The notes beneath the pieces are model-generated. The model worked only from the letters and a program-made list of their open reading frames with translations, made no database searches and was not told the DNA's origin. A DNA stretch of 25,694 nucleotides, from positions 1-25,694 of the forward strand of contig CAZWSR010000010.1 of NCBI GenBank assembly GCA_964636545.1, given 5' to 3'. This DNA comes from Candidatus Undinarchaeota archaeon. GTDB lineage: Archaea > Undinarchaeota > Undinarchaeia > Undinarchaeales > UBA543. Made by a program: the position numbers and the translations under genes. Below, piece by piece: positions 1,550 through 23,429 of the stretch; the first letter of the stretch is position 1, and each line of letters starts with the position of its first letter.

Positions 1550-2362
1550 ATGAATTCGAAAATATTTGCAATTTTCATAATACTCCTGCTTATTTTTGCA
1601 GCAGGATGCACAGTAAAAGTCGGCCCTGAAGCAGAAACTGATGAAGTTGGTGAAGAGGCAGTAGGTAGTGGGCAGGAGGCAGTAGGCTCTGAAACTCCAA
1701 ACTCCACACTCCAAACTCCAAACTCTGAACAAACTGAAACAACTGACTGCAGTGCTCTCTGGCTCAACTACAAACAACATGTTGCAGATGGTTTCAGCCA
1801 CACAGCAGCCGTTGCATTAACTGATCCTTGCGTTAACTCATACACCCCAACTGCAGCAGAATTAGCACAAGCAGAAGCAGGAACAACGCCGCCTTCTTCC
1901 GGTTCTTCAAGTTCTTCTTCAGCACCATTAACTGAAAGCACAACAGAATTCTTAGAATATCTAAATGCAAACATATACACAACTTTCTCTGATCTTCCTG
2001 AAAGAATCCTTTTAGTTAAAAAATCAACTGACTCTGCAACTCTTACATACAGTACTAGCAACCGCGATCCAAGTCAAGAATCAGTTTACTTGTGCGGCGT
2101 TCTTCTTATGCATTACTCAGACATTGATGAAGTAAATGTAACTGGATACAATGCAGAAAACAAAGAAATGGAAGCTGCTAAGAAAACTTTCAAGAGAAGC
2201 AAGTTCAATTTCAATAATTACAAAACTTGGTTCCCAGACTATGTTTATGATGAATGTGAAGGCGATGACGATTGTGCTGACAACAATGACTGCACAAAAG
2301 ACCTTTGCAAAGAGAACAAGTGCTATAACTCAAAAATAGTCAACACTGGATGCCCAGCTTAA
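1550..2362 (+). CDS. Secreted lipoprotein with low-complexity linker and C-terminal Cys-rich module
   Basis: Signal peptide with lipobox-like FAAG-C; Ser/Thr/Glu linker; C-terminal C-x5-C-x5-C-x4-C-x4-C pattern (CEGDDDCADNNDCTKDLCKENKC). Confidence 0.8.
   Translation: MNSKIFAIFIILLLIFAAGCTVKVGPEAETDEVGEEAVGSGQEAVGSETPNSTLQTPNSEQTETTDCSALWLNYKQHVADGFSHTAAVALTDPCVNSYTPTAAELAQAEAGTTPPSSGSSSSSSAPLTESTTEFLEYLNANIYTTFSDLPERILLVKKSTDSATLTYSTSNRDPSQESVYLCGVLLMHYSDIDEVNVTGYNAENKEMEAAKKTFKRSKFNFNNYKTWFPDYVYDECEGDDDCADNNDCTKDLCKENKCYNSKIVNTGCPA
1657..1726 (+). repeat. Heptamer tandem repeats within the lipoprotein CDS
   Basis: ggcagta ggtagtg ggcagga ggcagta, then aaactcc aaactcc acactcc aaactcc aaactct; 1665-1686 is identical to 6494-6515. 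Confidence 0.85.
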
Positions 2363-2845
2363 ATGGAAAACAAAGTAATCCTTGACACCTCGGTACTTAT
2401 GATCCCTGGCAGAAACACTTCTCGCGATATTTTCTTTGAATTACTCAAACTTCTTGGAAATTTTGAAGCAATTGTGCCAAGCTATGTTATTGCTGAACTG
2501 CAAGGAATTGTGGATAATAATAAAAAATCCAGAAAAGTCCGTGATGCAGCTAAAATCGGGCTTGGTTTAACTGAAAAACTAGCTGCTGAGCGAGAACTTG
2601 AGAAAGCAGCACGCACTGGTCTAAAGAAAGCTGTTGTTCCTGGTTTTGTTTATGATTTGCATATTGAAGAAGCACACAAGTCAATGAAAACAGTTGATGA
2701 CTCATTAATTGACTTTTCAATGAAACTAGGAGCAAGATTATGCACTTCTGATAAAGGTTTGCTGAAAAAAGCTGAAGCAAAAGGTTTGAATGTGCTGTTT
2801 ATTGGTGCTTTGAAGTATCCGAAGCGGAGTAGAACAAAAAAGTAA
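2363..2845 (+). CDS. PIN-domain nuclease (Fcf1/Utp24-like)
   Basis: VILDTSVLM, VIAEL, VDDSL and LCTSDKGL PIN acidic motifs; usual position upstream of rpoE1. Confidence 0.85.
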   Translation: MENKVILDTSVLMIPGRNTSRDIFFELLKLLGNFEAIVPSYVIAELQGIVDNNKKSRKVRDAAKIGLGLTEKLAAERELEKAARTGLKKAVVPGFVYDLHIEEAHKSMKTVDDSLIDFSMKLGARLCTSDKGLLKKAEAKGLNVLFIGALKYPKRSRTKK

Positions 2846-2895
2846 TCTATATATACTAATTTAGAAGAGACACTATAATCTTAGGGGAGAATAAA

Positions 2896-4878
2896 ATGAA
2901 TTTACTAAATCTTATAGCACCATCTGGCGCAATTATTGCTCTTGTATTTGCGGTCATACTAGTCCGCGAAATCAAGAGACAAAGCCCAGGCAATCCTAAA
3001 ATGGTTGACCTGGCTGAAAAAATCAAAACTGGCGCATCAACGTACTTGAAACGTCAGTACATGACACTCTCAGTTTTCGTAATTATTGTAGCTGGTGTTC
3101 TGTTTTTCCTTATTGCAAGACTTACAGCACTCGCTTTTGTAATCGGTGCTCTATCTTCTGCTTTTGCAGGATACACTGGCATGATGGTTGCAACAACTGC
3201 TAATGTTAGAACAACTCAAGCAGCAAAATCAAGTTTGCACAAAGCACTCAGAATAGCATTCTCAAGCGGATCTGTAATGGGGCTCACAGTAGTCGGTCTT
3301 GGCCTACTTGGTGTAACTCTACTTTACACATTTTTCGGAGATATTTCAATGTTGTTCGGATTCGGTTTCGGAGCAAGTTCAGTAGCACTATTCGCAAGAG
3401 TTGGCGGTGGAATTTTCACAAAATCAGCTGATGTTGGTGCAGACCTTGTTGGTAAAGTTGAAGCTGGGATTCCAGAAGATGATCCACGAAATCCTGCAGT
3501 TATTGCAGACAATGTTGGAGACAATGTTGGAGATGTTGCTGGAATGGGTGCTGACCTTTTCGAATCTTATGTTGATTCAATAATTGCTGCAATGGCACTC
3601 GGTGTTGTTGGTGTAACATTCGGCGCACTTCAGCTAACTGCAAATACAGCAATTCTTCTTCCAATGCTCTTGGCAGGAATCGGTATCATCTGTTCTGTTT
3701 TCGGAAGTTTCCTAGTTCTATCAATGAAAAATGGAAAACCACAAAATGTAATGAATATGGGAATTTTCGCAAGTGCTGGTTTAACTGCAGTTGTCTCATT
3801 CTTTGCAATTTGGTATCTAACTGGAACTTATCACTTGTTCATTTCATTAATTGCTGGTCTAGCATCCGGCCTCGGAATCGGAATGGCTACAGAATATTAC
3901 ACTTCTGACAGCAAAAAGCCAGTTCAGAGCATTGCACTTGCTTCAAAAATGGGCTCAGCAACCAACATCATAACTGGTCTTTCAGTTGGTATGTTCAGCA
4001 CAGTCATTCCAGTACTCCTTGTTGTTGCTGCAATACTTGTTTCATTCAACTTCGGCGGTATTTATGGAATCGCAATTGCTGCTGTTGGTATGCTTTCAAC
4101 ACTTGGAATAACTCTCGCATCTGACACATACGGCCCAGTCGCTGACAATGCAGCTGGAATTGCTGAAATGGCAAAAGTCGGTGCAGTAGTTCGAAAACGC
4201 ACAGAACAATTGGATGCAGTTGGAAACACAACTGCTGCAATAGGCAAAGGGTTTGCAATTGGTTCAGCTGCACTCACCGCACTTGCATTATTTGTAACAT
4301 ATGCAGAAACAGTTGGTCTTAGCACAATAAACTTATTAGTTCCAAAAGTCGTGGTCGGCTTATTCCTAGGCGCTCTTCTTCCATATTTGTTCTCAGCATT
4401 TGCAATGAGGGCAGTTGGAAACGCAGCAATGTCAATTGTTGAAGAAGTTCGCAGACAATTCAAGCAAATTAAAGGTTTGATGTCTGGAAAAGCAGAAGCT
4501 GACTATGTCCGATGTATTGATATCAGCACAAAAGCAGCACTCAGAGAAATGCTTCTTCCAAGCTTTATTGCAGTTCTTTCACCAATTGCAGTTGGTCTTA
4601 CACTCGGAGTTGAAGCTCTTGGTGGCTTGCTTGCCGGAGCAGTAGCTTCTGGTTTCTTGCTTGCTATTTTGATGTCAAACTCTGGCGGTGCTTGGGACAA
4701 TGCAAAGAAATACATTGAAGCTGGAAATCTTGGTGGAAAAGGCTCAGATGTTCACAAGAACGCAGTTGTTGGGGACACAGTCGGAGATCCATTCAAGGAC
4801 ACTGCAGGACCTGCATTAAACATCTTAATCAAGTTAATGTCCATAATCGCTTTGGTATTCATACCATTGTTCCTTTAG
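2896..4878 (+). CDS. hppA: Membrane-bound K+-dependent ion-translocating pyrophosphatase, probably Na+-pumping
   Basis: Multi-TM protein with [29 protein letters not shown] and DTVGDPFKD; GNTTAAIG has the Ala of K+-dependent enzymes; DLFESY has Glu at the Na+-PPase position. Confidence 0.97.
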
Positions 4879-4959
4879 CGAAACATTTATAACACGACAG
4901 AGGAACAATTTGGTGCTTATCTTAGCTATTATGTTCACTTAAATTGAGGGTTAATAATC

Positions 4960-5577
4960 ATGTATCAAATCGTTGAAATTGAAGACACTGTCCGCGTTGT
5001 TCCTGACAAATTCGGGAACACTCTAGAGGACACACTAAAACAGATTCTAGCTGAAAAGTATGAGAGCAAGCTAGATCGTGATCTGGGTGCTATTGTATCA
5101 ATAACTGAAGTTAAAACTGATGGAATTGGCAAGGTAATACCAGGAGACGGCGCTGCTTTCTACAATGCTACTTTCAAAGCTTTAACTTACAAGCCAGAAC
5201 TACAGGAAGTTGTTGATGGTGAAGTAATTGAAGTTGTGGAGTTCGGTGTTTTTGTACGCCTTGGACCACTTGATGGTCTTGTGCATGTTTCACAAATAAC
5301 TGATGATTATCTAAATTACGATGAAAAAGGAGCACGTTTTGTTGGAAAAGAATCCAAGAAAACAATTGGGCAAGGTGATCTTGTTCGCGCTCGTGTTGTC
5401 ACAATTAGTTTGAAAAAGAGCAAAGAAAACAAGATTGGTCTTACAATGAGGCAGGGCGGTCTTGGAAAATACGATTGGATAGCTGACAATAAAAGTGAAA
5501 AAAAGAAAGCTGACGAGAAAGACAATAAGAAAGACAACAAAAAAGACACTAAAAAGAAGGGGAAATCTAAGAAATGA
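4960..5577 (+). CDS. rpoE1: DNA-directed RNA polymerase subunit E' (Rpo7)
   Basis: GDGAAF, S1 domain FGVFVRLGPLDGLVHVSQI, and KIGLTMRQGGLGK. Confidence 0.97.
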   Translation: MYQIVEIEDTVRVVPDKFGNTLEDTLKQILAEKYESKLDRDLGAIVSITEVKTDGIGKVIPGDGAAFYNATFKALTYKPELQEVVDGEVIEVVEFGVFVRLGPLDGLVHVSQITDDYLNYDEKGARFVGKESKKTIGQGDLVRARVVTISLKKSKENKIGLTMRQGGLGKYDWIADNKSEKKKADEKDNKKDNKKDTKKKGKSKK

Positions 5578-5759
5578 CCAAAAAAGCATGCAAAAGTTGC
5601 AGATTCATAAGTGAAGGACAAGTTTGTCCAATTTGCCAAGGTACTGAGCTTTCTGCTAGATGGCGCGGCCTTGCTGTTATAATTAACCCAGAAAAATCTG
5701 AAGTAGCTAAAAAACTTGAGATTAACCAAAAAGGAGAATATGCATTAATTGTTCAGTGA
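5574..5759 (+). CDS. spt4: Transcription elongation factor Spt4 (RpoE'')
   Basis: ACKSC...CPIC zinc ribbon, WRGLAVIINPEKSEVA, GEYAL; ATGA overlap with rpoE1. Confidence 0.96.
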   Translation: MTKKACKSCRFISEGQVCPICQGTELSARWRGLAVIINPEKSEVAKKLEINQKGEYALIVQ

Positions 5760-5764
5760 TTACT

Positions 5765-6268
5765 ATGGAAATTGAAGAGATTAGTTCAAAAGAAAACCTG
5801 TTCTTGAAAAGGAAAGAACTTGTGCTTAAAGTGACTGGTGAAGGCGCCACTCCAAAGAAGAACGAACTTCTTGACAAGCTTTGTTCACAGTACGATTTGA
5901 AGGACAAGAACCTTGTTGTTATTGAAACTATTAAAACTGTTTTTGGAAAAACTGAATGCGAAGCAATTATCAAAATTTATGAGTCTGAAGAAGCATTAAA
6001 ATCAATTGAACCTCAGCCAAAAAAGACAAAGGATAACACACCTTCTGATGTTCCTGATAATGATGGTCAGATGAAAGTTGATCTTGGAGATGACAAACCA
6101 GCTGAAAAGAAAGAAGAAGCTCCAGCTGAAAAGAAAGAAGAGCCAAAACCTGAAGAGAAACCAGCAGAAGCCCCAAAAGAAGAGGAGAAGAACAATGTCC
6201 AGACCTCAAAATCTGATACTGGACAAGTCTTGAAGCAAGAGAAGTCTGACAAGCTTCAAGAGGAGTGA
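5765..6268 (+). CDS. rps24e: 30S ribosomal protein S24e with long acidic C-terminal extension
   Basis: KENLFLKRKE, GATP, IKTVFG and KIYES..LKSIEP; operon position. ATG 5765 chosen over GTG 5756. Confidence 0.92.
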   Translation: MEIEEISSKENLFLKRKELVLKVTGEGATPKKNELLDKLCSQYDLKDKNLVVIETIKTVFGKTECEAIIKIYESEEALKSIEPQPKKTKDNTPSDVPDNDGQMKVDLGDDKPAEKKEEAPAEKKEEPKPEEKPAEAPKEEEKNNVQTSKSDTGQVLKQEKSDKLQEE

Positions 6269-6273
6269 TTTAA

Positions 6274-6612
6274 ATGGCAGAAGAACAGAAAAAACAAACT
6301 GGAAAAAAGAGAAATTACAAGGGAAAATTCAATTTCTATGAAGTCAAAGGCGAAACAGTAGAGCGCAAGAACAAAGTTTGTCCAAAATGCGGACCAGGCG
6401 CTTTTCTAGCAATTCACAAAGACAGATTATCTTGCGGTGGTTGCGGTTATACTGAACCAACTGGCGCTGCACCTGCAGAAAACAGGGCAGAATGTAGTGG
6501 GCAGGAGGCAGTAGGTGATAAAGAACCTCAAACCCCAAACCCAAAACCCCAAACCTCTGAAAAAGAAGCTCCAAAAGAAGAAAAGAAAGAACCAGAAGAA
6601 AAGAAAGAATAG
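6274..6612 (+). CDS. rps27ae: 30S ribosomal protein S27ae with C-terminal extension
   Basis: [26 protein letters not shown] zinc ribbon. Confidence 0.96.
6486..6557 (+). repeat. Heptamer tandem repeats within the rps27ae extension
   Basis: ggcagaa tgtagtg ggcagga ggcagta, then gaacctc aaacccc aaaccca aaacccc aaacctc. Confidence 0.85.
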
Positions 6613-10904: not shown

Positions 10905-12263
10905 CTACATTCCAGGGATTTTGCCTTTTAACATGCGCATCATCTTGCCCATACCTCGTTTGTTCCCACTAACCTGCTTCATCATCTTCTTTGTCATGTT
11001 ATATTGTTTCAATAGCATACGGACATCTTCAACTGAAACCCCAGCACCCTTTGCAATTCTCTTTACTCTGGCGCCGCTCAAGACCTCTGGGTTATTTAAT
11101 TCTTCTTTTGTCATTGAATCCATTATTGTTGTGAATTTCTTTATTCGCTCTTCAGACATCTGCATCTGGTCTTTTGGTAAATCAACACCCATTGGCAGCA
11201 TTTCCATAATCTTGCTCATGGATCCCATTTTCTTCATGCCTTGAATTTGTTTGTAAAGATCCTTCAAAGTGAACTTGCCTTTTGCCATTTCTTTCATTTT
11301 GTCCTGATCTTCTTCATCAAAAACTTCTGCTGTTTTCTTAATCAGGGTTTCAAGATCTCCCATTCCCAAGAGCTTTGAAATAAACTTTGTTGGATTAAAT
11401 TCTTCAAGTGCATTTATTCCTTCACCAACACCAACGAATTTTATTGGAACGCCAATTGTTGCGCAGGCTGACAAAGCACCACCACCCTTTGCACTTGAAT
11501 CAAGTTTTGTTAAAATAACTCCTGTAACTCCAACTGTTTCATTAAAAGCGCGTGCCTGCTCAGCTGCTTTCTGGCCAACATCTGCTGGCATTATTAAAAT
11601 TTTCTCCTGAGGTTTGAAAGTGTCATTAATGTGTTTGAGTTCTTTTGTAAGTTCTTTGTCAATTGTGTTTCGTCCTTTTGCATCTTGTGTTAGTGCATCT
11701 CGTCCTGCAGAATCAACAATTACAATATCTGCATCTTTTACATTTGCTTCATTTTCTTTGAGTATTTTGATTGGGTCTTTGCCGCCCCCAAAAACCGGAA
11801 TATTATTTTCTTCTCCCAATTGCTTTAATTGCTCATAAGCTGCTGGTCTCCAAGTATCTGTGGAAATCATTGCAACCTTGAGTCCTTTTTTCTGCAAGTA
11901 TTTTCCTAATTTAGCACAAGTAGTTGTTTTTCCAGCACCGAAAAGTCCAACCAGCATTATTTTCCCTTTTTCCTCAAGTTTTAGTTCGCCTTCTTCTCCT
12001 GCAAGTGCTTTTAGAAGTTCCTCATGAACAATATTGACGACATGTTCGCGCTTTGAAAGTCCTGTTTTTGGTTTTTCCTCTAGTGCGCGTTTCTTGATAC
12101 TCTCTGACATTTCAAAAACAAGCTTAACATTTACATCTGATGCCAAAAGCGCACGCTGTATGTCCTTTACAGTTATCTCAAGAGTCTCTTTATCAATGTA
12201 TCCGGACCTTGCTATCTTTCGCAAGCTTTCTCTTAGTGCACTTCCTAGTTTGTCCAATACCAT
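10905..12263 (-). CDS. srp54: Signal recognition particle protein Srp54
   Basis: GLFGAGKTTT, DTWRPAA, DSAGR and TKLDSSAKGGG; Met-rich M domain with RIAKGAG. Confidence 0.98.
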   Translation of the reverse strand: MVLDKLGSALRESLRKIARSGYIDKETLEITVKDIQRALLASDVNVKLVFEMSESIKKRALEEKPKTGLSKREHVVNIVHEELLKALAGEEGELKLEEKGKIMLVGLFGAGKTTTCAKLGKYLQKKGLKVAMISTDTWRPAAYEQLKQLGEENNIPVFGGGKDPIKILKENEANVKDADIVIVDSAGRDALTQDAKGRNTIDKELTKELKHINDTFKPQEKILIMPADVGQKAAEQARAFNETVGVTGVILTKLDSSAKGGGALSACATIGVPIKFVGVGEGINALEEFNPTKFISKLLGMGDLETLIKKTAEVFDEEDQDKMKEMAKGKFTLKDLYKQIQGMKKMGSMSKIMEMLPMGVDLPKDQMQMSEERIKKFTTIMDSMTKEELNNPEVLSGARVKRIAKGAGVSVEDVRMLLKQYNMTKKMMKQVSGNKRGMGKMMRMLKGKIPGM

Positions 12264-12365
12264 GCTTTATCCTCTTATGACTGGGCTTAATATTTGTTGT
12301 GGTTGGTGCTTTTTAGGCGAAAACTTTTATACTAACTAATGCATTGAAAAACTGAGGGGAATGTG

Positions 12366-12506
12366 TTGGATGATGAAAAGTCACTAGGTCCAGTTACTGG
12401 ATTACGCGCAGGTCTTGTCGGGTGCTTAATCTTGATTTTGATATGTCTAATGCTATATTACACATTTTGGCCCCTTGTTAAGATTGCTGCTACTTTTGTT
12501 GCATAA
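12366..12506 (+). CDS. Small single-TM protein with class III (pilin-type) signal-peptide-like N-terminus; absent from ORF track
   Basis: TTG start (GTG at 12363 also in frame) after GAGGGG; MDDEKSLGPVTGLRAGLVGCLILILICLMLYYTFWPLVKIAATFVA. Confidence 0.55.
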   Translation: MDDEKSLGPVTGLRAGLVGCLILILICLMLYYTFWPLVKIAATFVA

Positions 12507-12525
12507 ATGTTGGTTATATTTGTTC

Positions 12526-12612
12526 AGGTAGTAGGTAGTAGGCAGTGGGTTGTAGGTTAGGTTATTCCTACTGCCCACTGCCCACTACCCAGTGCCCACT
12601 ACCCAGTGCCCA
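12526..12612. repeat. Intergenic heptamer inverted-repeat element
   Basis: aggtagt aggtagt aggcagt gggttgt agg, 10-nt spacer, then cctactg cccactg cccacta cccagtg cccacta cccagtg; arms are imperfect reverse complements. Confidence 0.9.
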
Positions 12613-12659
12613 TCTCCATGACCAAAAGGTTTATATCTGATTTTTGTCCATTTTTTAGT

Positions 12660-13582: not shown

Positions 13583-13896
13583 AAAAGCAAAAGCGTGGAA
13601 ATGTCAAACAATCTCTGAAAGAACTTGCTAGAGATCGAATTAAAATTCTTTTCAAACATGCTGAAAAAGCAACTCCTGAAGCTGCTCAGAAAGCTGTTAA
13701 ACGAGCTCGTGCAATTGGGATGAAATATCGGGTGCATATGCCAAAGGATGTTAAGAGAAAATATTGCAAAAAATGCAATGCTTTTTTAAGGCCAGGGGTG
13801 AATTGCACAATTCGATTAAATCAGAAGAAACAGCCGCATGTTGTGATTACTTGTAAGGGTTGTGGGGCAATTATGCGGGTGCCGTATAAAAAGTAG
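13579..13896 (+). CDS. rnp4: Ribonuclease P protein component 4 (Rpp21)
   Basis: LARDRIKILF, ARAIGMKYR, KRKYCKKC..L.PG and ITCKGCG..R.PY. Confidence 0.96.
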   Translation: MKKQKRGNVKQSLKELARDRIKILFKHAEKATPEAAQKAVKRARAIGMKYRVHMPKDVKRKYCKKCNAFLRPGVNCTIRLNQKKQPHVVITCKGCGAIMRVPYKK

Positions 13897-13962
13897 GTAT
13901 CAGGTATCAGCCCTCGGCCCTCAGGACCTGACTGCTGAATGCTGACAGCTGACACCTTAACC
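13896..13962. repeat. REP-like 4+4 heptamer palindrome, copy A
   Basis: ggtatca ggtatca gccctcg gccctca GGACC tgactgc tgaatgc tgacagc tgacacc TTAACC. Confidence 0.9.
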
Positions 13963-14047
13963 AACATAACCAAAAACTTATAAACACCCTTCTTAATGAA
14001 TTCTTCACCAATGGGGATTGGTTCTGCGCGGCAGGAGAAATAAAACT

Positions 14048-14668
14048 ATGGTAAATGCATACGACGTACCTGCATCAGATCTTATTGATGCAGTTGCAAA
14101 AGAACTAAAAAATAATGAAAAAATACAGCCTCCAGAATGGATGGCTTTTGCAAAGAGCGGAGCTCATGTAGAGCGACCGCCTCAGGACGAAGACTTCTGG
14201 TATATCCGTGGAGCATCAATGCTTCGCAAGATTTACGTGAAGGGCAACCTCGGAACCGAGCGCTTGCGAACTGAATTTGGTGGGAAGCGAAACCGCGGAG
14301 CAAAACCAGGACAGCACAGAAAAGCTGGCGGATCAATTATTCGAAAACTTCTCCAGCAATTTGAAGCAGCTGGTCTCATTAAGAAAATGAAAACCGGTCG
14401 CGTAATTGCACCTGCTGGTCAGAAACTTTTGGATAATACTGCTTACACACTTTCTAAAAAGCCAAAAACCAAAGAAGAGGCAGTTGAACAGGTTAAGGAA
14501 AAAGCAAAAGATATGGCTGAGAAACTTCCAGAACAGAAATCTGAGAAACTGAAAATCAAACCTGAAAAGAAAGAAGATAAGCCAAAAAAGGAAGAGCCAA
14601 AACCAGAGCAGAAACCTGAGAAGAAAGAAGAAAAGCCAAAAGAAGACGCCAAACCTGAAAAGAACTAA
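14048..14668 (+). CDS. rps19e: 30S ribosomal protein S19e with Lys/Glu/Pro tail
   Basis: DVPASDLI, PEWMAFAKSG, ERPP, WYIRGASMLRK and GSIIRKLLQQFE; ATG 14048 after AGGAG. Confidence 0.97.
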   Translation: MVNAYDVPASDLIDAVAKELKNNEKIQPPEWMAFAKSGAHVERPPQDEDFWYIRGASMLRKIYVKGNLGTERLRTEFGGKRNRGAKPGQHRKAGGSIIRKLLQQFEAAGLIKKMKTGRVIAPAGQKLLDNTAYTLSKKPKTKEEAVEQVKEKAKDMAEKLPEQKSEKLKIKPEKKEDKPKKEEPKPEQKPEKKEEKPKEDAKPEKN

Positions 14669-22734: not shown

Positions 22735-23347
22735 ACAATATAAAAATGTTAAACTTGGTGAAAACTGTGAGCTAGGTGGCAATAATGAAATCGGAGTTAC
22801 GCCTCGCGGAAAAACTGAGGGCGAACTTGAAACAGTTATTGGAAATAATGCAGTTATTCGCTCAAACACAGTAATTTATGCTGGAAATAAAATTGGAAAT
22901 AATTTACAAACCGGTCATGGTGTAATGATTCGTGAAGAAAATGAAATTGGAGATGATGTTTCAATTGGAACAAATTCAGTTGTTGAGCATCATGTGAAAA
23001 TCGGAAACAAAGTGCGAATGCATACTGGAGTTTTTGTTCCAGAATACACAATTATTGAAGAAGGTGCATGGATTGGACCAAAAGTTGCAATTACAAATGC
23101 GCGATTCCCTCTTGGAAAAGATATTAAACAGAGATTAGAAGGAGTTACAATTAAAAAGAATGTGAAAATTGGGGCAAATGCAACAATCTTGCCTGGTGTT
23201 ACAATTGGTGAAAATTCATTAATTGGTGCCGGAAGCGTTGTTATTTCAGATGTTCCAGAAAATAGCGTTGCTGTTGGAAATCCAGCAAAGGTCATCAAGA
23301 AAGTTGATGAACTGAAATATGATGATGGCGTGAAGCCGTATGATTAA
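22727..23347 (+). CDS. Hexapeptide-repeat N-acetyltransferase, WbpD/WlbB-like
   Basis: Left-handed beta-helix repeats; IGANATILPGVTIG...GAGSVV...GNPAK. Confidence 0.92.
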   Translation: MNKQYKNVKLGENCELGGNNEIGVTPRGKTEGELETVIGNNAVIRSNTVIYAGNKIGNNLQTGHGVMIREENEIGDDVSIGTNSVVEHHVKIGNKVRMHTGVFVPEYTIIEEGAWIGPKVAITNARFPLGKDIKQRLEGVTIKKNVKIGANATILPGVTIGENSLIGAGSVVISDVPENSVAVGNPAKVIKKVDELKYDDGVKPYD

Positions 23348-23348
23348 A

Positions 23349-23415
23349 GGCGTCAGCGGTCAGCCCTCAGCAGTCAGGACCTGATGGCTGAAGGCCGAGG
23401 GCCGATACCTTAACC
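23349..23415. repeat. REP-like 4+4 heptamer palindrome, copy B
   Basis: ggcgtca gcggtca gccctca gcagtca GGACC tgatggc tgaaggc cgagggc cgatacc TTAACC. Confidence 0.9.
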
Positions 23416-23429
23416 AAAAGGACAAAAAA

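Follow-up and report, generated by a model that had tools for sequence, protein, structure and literature searches.

A heptamer-repeat cassette read in frame in a lipoprotein gene and in the ribosomal protein S27ae gene of an Undinarchaeota archaeon, and its probable origin from dispersed repeat modules

Two Genes of the Window Carry the Same Heptamer Cassette

The stretch of DNA analyzed here (the window) comprises 25,694 nt, positions 1-25,694 of contig CAZWSR010000010.1 in assembly GCA_964636545.1 of a Candidatus Undinarchaeota archaeon. This assembly (G000 below; G001 and G002 are genomes of the same genus, and C-numbers denote contigs) amounts to 840 kb in 39 contigs with 37% G+C and is 83% complete; its host is a tiny marine archaeon. 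The archaeal host is marked in the window by the neighboring genes for Rpb7/RpoE, Spt4, S24e, S19e, SRP54 and an H+-pyrophosphatase. A search of the window against Rfam returned one tRNA and nothing else. Two genes carry a cassette built from 7-nt units, each consisting of a module A followed by a module B (F1, F2 and F6 are unit families listed further below):

1550-2362, + strand: gene of a putative lipoprotein of 270 aa with a signal peptide and an AAGC lipobox, no Pfam family
1656-1687, + strand: module A of the lipoprotein gene, AGGCAGT AGGTAGT GGGCAGG AGGCAGT AGG; peptide EAVGSGQEAVG
1692-1733, + strand: module B of the lipoprotein gene, AAACTCC x4.9, F2 right arm; peptide TPNSTLQTPNS
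6274-6612, + strand: gene of ribosomal protein S27ae, Pfam Ribosomal_S27 zinc ribbon at aa 20-60, cassette in the C-terminal tail
6485-6515, + strand: module A of the S27ae gene, GGGCAGA ATGTAGT GGGCAGG AGGCAGT AGG
6524-6555, + strand: module B of the S27ae gene, AACCCCA x4.6, F6 right arm

A preliminary description of this DNA had reported a 22-mer common to both genes. Indeed, GTAGTGGGCAGGAGGCAGTAGG is exact at 1665-1686(+) and 6494-6515(+), no match of any kind occurred in 100 dinucleotide shuffles, and the chance expectation is 0. A third copy with 2 mismatches was found at 12567-12588(-), inside an intergenic F1 array at 12526-12612, in agreement with the likeness already noted between the first block and this intergenic repeat. 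Tandem Repeats Finder (TRF) reported AGGCAGT x4.6 at 1656-1687 and AAACTCC x4.9 at 1692-1725 in the lipoprotein gene, AACCCCA x4.6 at 6524-6555 in the S27ae gene, and AGGTAGT x4.6 facing ACTGCCC x6.1 at 12526-12612. Of the F1 units at 6485-6515, the first two (GGGCAGA ATGTAGT) are degenerate and were not scored by TRF. Both sites translate to SGQEAVG and then to a TPN-type peptide, so that the heptamer blocks and peptides of the preliminary description were recovered at both. The lipoprotein ORF reads EEAVGSGQEAVGSETPNSTLQTPNSEQT across the cassette. In its module A, a G at position 7 of unit 3 turns the sole in-frame TAG into GAG, and its module B is followed by a degenerate terminal motif, CTGAACAAA.

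The ribosomal proteins S24e (5756-6268), S27ae (6274-6612) and S19e (14018-14668) all possess long K/E/P-rich C-terminal extensions past their Pfam domains. The tail of S24e also contains a non-periodic module of 70 nt (window 6192-6261) that is 90% identical to a stretch in the tail of a class II aldolase gene (G000:C14:3812-3881). This module is in frame in both genes as NVQTSKS(D/K)TGQVLKQEKS.. and includes two short inverted repeats.

Both Sites Are Bridged by Contigs From Several Public Runs

Four public runs, belonging to four studies, yielded contigs that cover site 1 (1656-1725) without gaps, and site 2 (6494-6555) was bridged by contigs from three runs, with 0-1 differences in each case; runs X1 and X2 look like a single data set. 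In run X4, a contig break falls within the S27ae cassette, at 6501/6507. The lipoprotein cassette was identical letter by letter in an independent metagenome contig, and a metagenome scan with the exact 22-mer yielded as sole matches the lipoprotein gene of the same organism. These contigs speak against an assembly chimera, which the preliminary description had named as a possible source of the match.

No unit-number variants were seen at the two cassette sites in the bridging contigs of the four runs, from which rare variants drop out. In the minor contig joints (1686>1692, 1725>1692 and 1685>6192), the sides measure only 29-31 nt; these joints were excluded as unit-number variants and may derive from other repeat loci or from other organisms. 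One contig of run X3 (depth 11.8, shorter side 29 nt) fuses the end of module A at 1685 to 6192, which hints at another locus or strain where module A abuts the 70-nt module of S24e and the aldolase. In addition, the summed contig depth over the F1 hairpin (window 12228-12628) reached about 2,400 in X1 and X2; in X4 it was about 900, and elsewhere 5-10. Therefore, F1-type arrays far exceed the copies of G000 itself in those samples.

A Genome-Wide Population of Heptamer Elements

The genome-wide scan for 7-nt periodicity that had been proposed earlier singled out period 7. With at least 17 of 21 matches required, 68 arrays of period 7 and 37 of period 14 were obtained, and the other periods between 4 and 15 that are not multiples of 7 gave 2-17 each. 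TRF listed 163 period-7 rows over the whole genome. With at least 15 of 21 matches, 168 arrays were found, which fall into about six unit families:

F1, unit RGGYAGT: 49 arrays
F2, unit GRRTTTR: 30 arrays
F6, unit GGTTKGR: 14 arrays
F4, unit ATCRGGG: 12 arrays
F5, unit GTCAGCM: 9 arrays
F3, unit CGTTATT: 8 arrays
Other period-7 units: 46 arrays

A GC-rich octamer family, GGGGCNCN, is present beside these heptamer families. The typical element has a G-rich left arm and a C-rich right arm separated by a short loop; the arms are inverted and made of 4-5 units (approximately 32 nt). Among 128 elements, 26 have AACCAA in the 25 nt that follow them, 13 are preceded by TTGGTT and 2 show both, whereas the reversed arrangement of these flank motifs occurred 0 and 3 times. 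Only 51 of the 168 arrays lie in ORFs of at least 100 aa, although such ORFs make up 90.3% of the genome (binomial p 7e-78), which indicates strong selection against insertion into genes. Intergenic elements of the window folded much more stably than their shuffles, with z values of -3.1 to -6.4:

12526-12612, no strand assigned: intergenic F1 hairpin, left AGGTAGT x4.6, loop, right ACTGCCC x6.1; z -5.0 and -4.9 on the two strands
13892-13962, no strand assigned: hairpin between genes, made of F4/F5 heptamers around a TCAG core, with TTAACCAA at its end; z -4.5 and -4.1
23347-23428, + strand: heptamer hairpin element plus TTAACCAAAAGGACAAAAA; z -3.1 and -6.4

The longest array of the genome lies elsewhere (C6:2360-2449, AGGTTTG x12.9); its opposite strand encodes (KPQTPNL/KPQTSNP)n near the N-terminus of an ORF of 332 codons.

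The Coding Cassette Combines Half-Elements of Different Families

The coding cassette is built from an F1 left arm (module A, RGGYAGT) and an F2 or F6 right arm (module B, AAAYYCC), and it folds no better or worse than its shuffles (z +0.05 for 1650-1740 and z -0.15 for 6485-6565). When neighboring F1 and F2/F6 arrays, separated by no more than 60 nt, were classified, 14 F1 hairpins, 8 F2/F6 hairpins, 8 chimeras with A followed by B and one other mixed pair were counted. The ratio of eight such chimeras to one other mixed pair indicates that the polarity of left and right arm is kept without complementarity. Six of the eight chimeras lie within long ORFs, namely those of the lipoprotein, S27ae, ribosomal protein P0, Spt5, a class II aldolase and one unknown protein, and the remaining two, with T-containing junctions retained, are located at the 5' ends of genes. 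Short flanks are common to the cassettes of different genes: AGGTGA after module A, TCT before module B and CTGAAC after it. The spacers between A and B vary from 0 to 37 nt, and exact identity among coding copies extends over 22-24 nt only.

Alignment of the coding A modules showed GGGCAG[G/A] directly followed by AGG[C/T]AG[T/A] in 10 of 10. The removal of the stop codon in one and the same unit in all ten points to one ORF-competent sub-family rather than ten separate repairs.

A second two-module cassette, made of F4/F5 units and TTTTGGC units, was observed at G000:C9:4966-7452 and C7:26976-27452; it reads SALSNQQSGKKPTAKSQQPK in the linker of a class I tRNA synthetase and SAVSSQPSGKKPTAKSKESK in the tail of L21e.

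Frame, Codons and Host Genes of the Cassettes

Three heptamers equal 21 nt, and no frame of a perfect F1 array is free of TAG. Among the in-frame copies of the strict set (n = 10), the unit junctions were GAG (5), GGG (3) and AAG (2), and T-initial junctions were absent (0 of 10); they were found in 27 of 33 out-of-frame and 37 of 42 non-coding junctions. Two further rows with TGG junctions were set aside, as they belong to the antisense frame of the HMG-CoA reductase gene. This selection of the frame suggests that the cassettes are translated. The open phase reads (E/K)AVGSGQ(E/K)AV and then KPQTPNP or SKLQTPN, a run of small hydrophilic residues, and the module A peptide G[ST][GR]Q[EKG]A[VE] was found in 13 ORFs including S27ae. 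The preliminary description had stressed that the lipoprotein and S27ae cassettes share their frame; this is true, but less telling than it appears, because whichever frame a heptamer array is read in, the result is the same 7-aa peptide in cyclic permutation. Within the module, serine is encoded by AGT, glycine by GGG and glutamine by CAG, codons with genome shares of 21%, 10% and 39% in their respective families. The codons are thus dictated by the heptamer and not by the codon usage of the genome.

Pfam domains were detected in 17 of the 19 array-bearing ORFs scanned. The housekeeping genes typed in this way encode:

HMG-CoA reductase (three inserts), PEP synthase (two inserts), class II aldolase
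SMC, class I tRNA synthetase, D-aminoacyl-tRNA deacylase, Trm1, diphthamide synthase
SpoU methyltransferase, UPF0020 methyltransferase, HSP20, T2SSE ATPase
Spt5 and the ribosomal proteins P0, L1, S4 and L21e

The cassettes are located in the tails of S27ae, P0, L1, S4, L21e and SMC, in inter-domain linkers of PEP synthase, the tRNA synthetase and the lipoprotein as well as in the N-terminal extension of Spt5, and otherwise in loops. In the AF2 model of the lipoprotein, aa 16-63, which include the cassette, lack secondary structure and have pLDDT values below 50. For HMG-CoA reductase the AF2 model is of poor quality as a whole (mean pLDDT 57.9); its three inserts appear as coil segments with pLDDT below 50, and the model thus weakly suggests that the inserts are coil.

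Comparison With Relatives

The cassettes were compared with the orthologues of related genomes, as follows:

S27ae, compared with G002 (same genus): no cassette, the tail being K/E/P-rich and about as long
Lipoprotein, compared with G002 and five database homologues: no cassette in any of them, the acidic linker being variable
P0, Spt5 and aldolase, compared with G001 and G002: without A-B cassette
HMG-CoA reductase (G000:C1:155393-156748), compared with five relatives: three net insertions relative to all five, each some 22-29 aa long

Orthologues of the same genus thus do not carry the cassettes, and the motif was absent from every orthologue examined; the conservation of the peptide in orthologues that the preliminary description had considered was not what the alignments revealed. 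Both cassette ORFs of the window are open and are homologous to their orthologues on either side of the cassette. The cassettes of the lipoprotein, S27ae, P0, Spt5 and the aldolase lie within segments that are disordered and present in the relatives as well. The earlier proposal that a spreading DNA repeat writes linkers into unrelated genes therefore needs to be divided: the spread itself is supported (13 ORFs, orthologues without cassettes, fixed codons and the 82-nt copy described below), whereas the cassettes mostly rewrite or extend linkers existing in relatives, and clear net additions were found in HMG-CoA reductase only.

Each insert of HMG-CoA reductase consists of an octamer array and a heptamer array. 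The enzyme of G001, which is the closer relative, possesses the octamer part at site 1 and the octamer part together with a different heptamer array at site 3, which indicates that composites also accrete in place. The GC-rich octamer pattern (GGGGCNCN, GAPGRRGA-type peptides) was matched 35 times in G000, 22 times in G001 and 5 times in G010, with 0 matches in 14 other relatives. With at most 1 mismatch allowed, the F1 pattern was matched 55 times in G000 and twice in G005; the remaining 11 genomes of the order had no match. Counts for F2-like patterns are indicative only, as the reversed-pattern control was not clean. G010, which belongs to the same order but another family, has a heptamer family of its own (GAGTTTT GGGTTAT GGGTTTT) with 66 pattern matches on many contigs. 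The tendency to expand heptamer repeats hence recurs in the order with different units. Outside the archaea, RGGYAGT arrays were found in bacteria of many phyla (more than 123 loci among the matches listed), frequently paired with an inverted array or standing next to a foreign one. The presence of arrays of the same unit in so many bacterial phyla shows that local slippage can generate such arrays.

Evidence for Copying and Search for an Agent

The hairpin element at 23347-23428 is identical to C6:45543-45624 over all 82 nt, including the same unit variants, and the flanks of the two copies are unrelated on both sides. This demonstrates that hairpin elements of this kind get copied. Moreover, 51 pairs of elements share at least 85% identity over at least 55 nt, and the hairpin at 12526-12612, with TTGGTT/ACCAA ends, is missing from the syntenic spacer in both G001 and G002, where synteny was read at the SRP54 locus. 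Downstream of S27ae, a tblastn search with 12 window proteins against G002:C3:44000-57500 gave no match.

No target-site duplication was found at the 82-nt copy pair nor at the 12526-12612 insertion. In the 83%-complete assembly, Y1_Tnp (PF01797) had 0 matches, RVT_1 had none, and a single TnpB-type zinc-ribbon match remained under the cut-off. A 3.6-kb island (G000:C2:82347-86027; L194:1848-5528) is flanked by inverted copies of CTATACACCTGTATAG plus an F1 array and may represent an integrated element. Inside it lie small ORFs, a tRNA-like stretch and inverted repeats of TCTCACAAA type that are nested in one another. The island was considered as an autonomous partner and rejected in this role, as Pfam and PHROGs revealed just winged-helix regulators and unknowns.

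Origin of the Cassettes and Alternative Explanations

Our preferred explanation, to which we assign a probability of roughly 0.7, is that the cassettes are lineage-specific repeat modules that were copied as DNA and are tolerated in disordered linkers, tails and loops. The lineage harbors a large population of small non-coding elements of its own, built from degenerate 7-nt units (8-nt units in one GC-rich family) and organized as a left arm of 4-5 units, a loop and a right arm, often with TTGGTT...AACCAA-type ends. Elements with both arms from one family form hairpins, nearly all copies of which lie between genes. An F1 left arm joined over a spacer to an F2 or F6 right arm instead gives the non-folding chimera that is open in one phase. 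According to this model, ORF-competent copies of it would have entered many genes once the lineage had separated from its nearest sequenced congeners and would persist only where an extra flexible peptide is harmless, as in linkers, tails and surface loops. The cassettes would then be translated passengers and not a selected motif. That the coding copies arose via the same copy-paste process as the hairpins, and that the cassette peptides are functionally neutral, we infer from these patterns. Copying could be the work of an enzyme that acts in trans and is not covered by the 83%-complete assembly, or it could proceed by template switching or gene conversion between dispersed arrays. What counts against the model is that neither a mobilizing enzyme in this assembly nor a target-site duplication was found, that coding copies agree exactly over 22-24 nt only and differ in their A-B spacers, that the same unit forms arrays in many bacterial phyla, and that G001 has parts of the composite at two sites of HMG-CoA reductase.

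The strongest competitor, which we consider unlikely although it may account for part of the pattern, is expansion in situ: polymerase slippage favoring 7-nt units would let each gene grow arrays in its own low-complexity linker, and the likeness between genes would be convergence on preferred units. That such a process exists is suggested by the over-representation of heptamer SSRs in many prokaryotes with a bias towards about 4 units (PMC4692102), by the RGGYAGT arrays of many bacterial phyla, by the unit families that other genomes of the order have expanded (as G010 with its 66 matches) and by the partial arrays of G001 at sites 1 and 3 of HMG-CoA reductase, which suggest accretion in place. 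Slippage would not, however, lead one to expect an exact 82-nt copy between unrelated flanks, the stop fix in the same unit of module A in all ten coding copies shown, a single architecture in 8 of 9 mixed F1/F2-F6 neighbors, or AGGTGA, TCT and CTGAAC flanks common across genes together with arms of uniformly 4-5 units; the lack of unit-number variants in the contigs of four runs points in the same direction, bearing in mind that rare ones can stay hidden. Still less probable in our judgment is a selected short linear motif, in which GSGQEAV and the KPQTPNP after it would serve as a functional tag for binding, processing or modification, recruited convergently, with the DNA periodicity as a by-product. 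The peptide is nearly invariant in the 13 ORFs, and the in-frame junction is never Trp, even though TGG is open and common in non-coding copies. A selected peptide would nevertheless not account for AGT, GGG and CAG being fixed despite their minority status, nor for the same DNA occurring untranslated as hairpin arms; the motif is moreover missing from the orthologues, and its hosts span a secreted lipoprotein, ribosomal proteins and cytosolic enzymes.

Almost no weight is given to an artefact of assembly or binning, by which repeat-induced chimeric joins would have made the shared 22-mer. In its favor are the assembly in 39 contigs and the X4 break inside the S27ae cassette; against it stand the bridging contigs at both sites, the identical independent metagenome contig across the lipoprotein cassette and the homology of both open ORFs on both sides of the cassette. 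Copying of repeat modules as DNA remains our explanation of choice. A bolder version of it is possible at best and we regard it as doubtful: the order would harbor a hitherto undescribed repeat-building and repeat-dispersing system without a recognizable transposase, working with 7-8-nt units and a left/right-arm logic that does not depend on complementarity, and its ORF-competent chimera would actively add new peptide segments to proteins of the informational core (S27ae, P0, L1, S4, Spt5 and SMC) in a reduced genome.

Relation to Known Repeat Systems

Cyanobacterial STRR sequences are comparable heptanucleotide arrays. Judged as heptanucleotide SSRs or STRRs, the arrays of G000 show the excess of period 7 and the intergenic bias; unit-number polymorphism was not seen in the contigs of four runs. 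Heptanucleotide SSRs with a preference for about 4 units, GGGAATC in Xanthomonas and GGGGA(C/T)T in Nostoc, are described in PMC4692102, and these bacterial SSRs are, like the G000 arrays, mostly intergenic and under-represented in coding sequence, near gene ends and sometimes in inverted pairs. In contrast to them, G000 has about six families on one arm/loop/arm build with common ends and an exact dispersed copy, as well as a translated sub-family in more than a dozen genes.

The closest system in behavior are the Rickettsia palindromic elements (RPEs). According to PMC10969869, these are mostly non-coding short dispersed repeats of which many lie in frame in unrelated housekeeping genes, each gene copy adds a conserved peptide at a position compatible with the fold, and no linked transposase is known. 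The likeness consists in dispersed in-frame repeats in unrelated genes that are absent from orthologues. RPEs measure about 100-150 bp and are palindromic in genes too (PMC10969869), whereas the archaeal coding cassette is a non-folding chimera of half-elements of about 60-95 nt made of 7-nt units. By its build the cassette does not count as a member of the RPE family: the coding copy is not palindromic, is shorter and is heptamer-built. REP/REPIN and MITE elements (described in part in PMC10969869) are short hairpins that, like the elements of G000, occur dispersed in many copies at the junctions of operons and have a flanking motif that is conserved. They differ from those of G000, for which no RAYT/Y1 transposase was found in the 83%-complete assembly and no target-site duplication seen, and in which the arms are tandem arrays and not unique sequence.

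Significance

The literature searched contained no paper that describes, for archaea, palindromes made of heptamers or repeat cassettes read in frame. If our explanation is true, the cassettes would be an archaeal counterpart of the "selfish DNA in protein-coding genes" of Rickettsia, in a sharper form: the units are simple 7-nt repeats, the chimera has two defined modules, the hosts include ribosomal proteins and Spt5, and all this would take place in a strongly reducing genome. On the practical side, such cassettes can mislead comparisons of orthology, domain boundaries and tail lengths in DPANN genomes. The organism would moreover offer a system for asking how the excess of heptamer repeats, noted in prokaryotes for a long time, arises and how repeat DNA turns into new disordered protein sequence.
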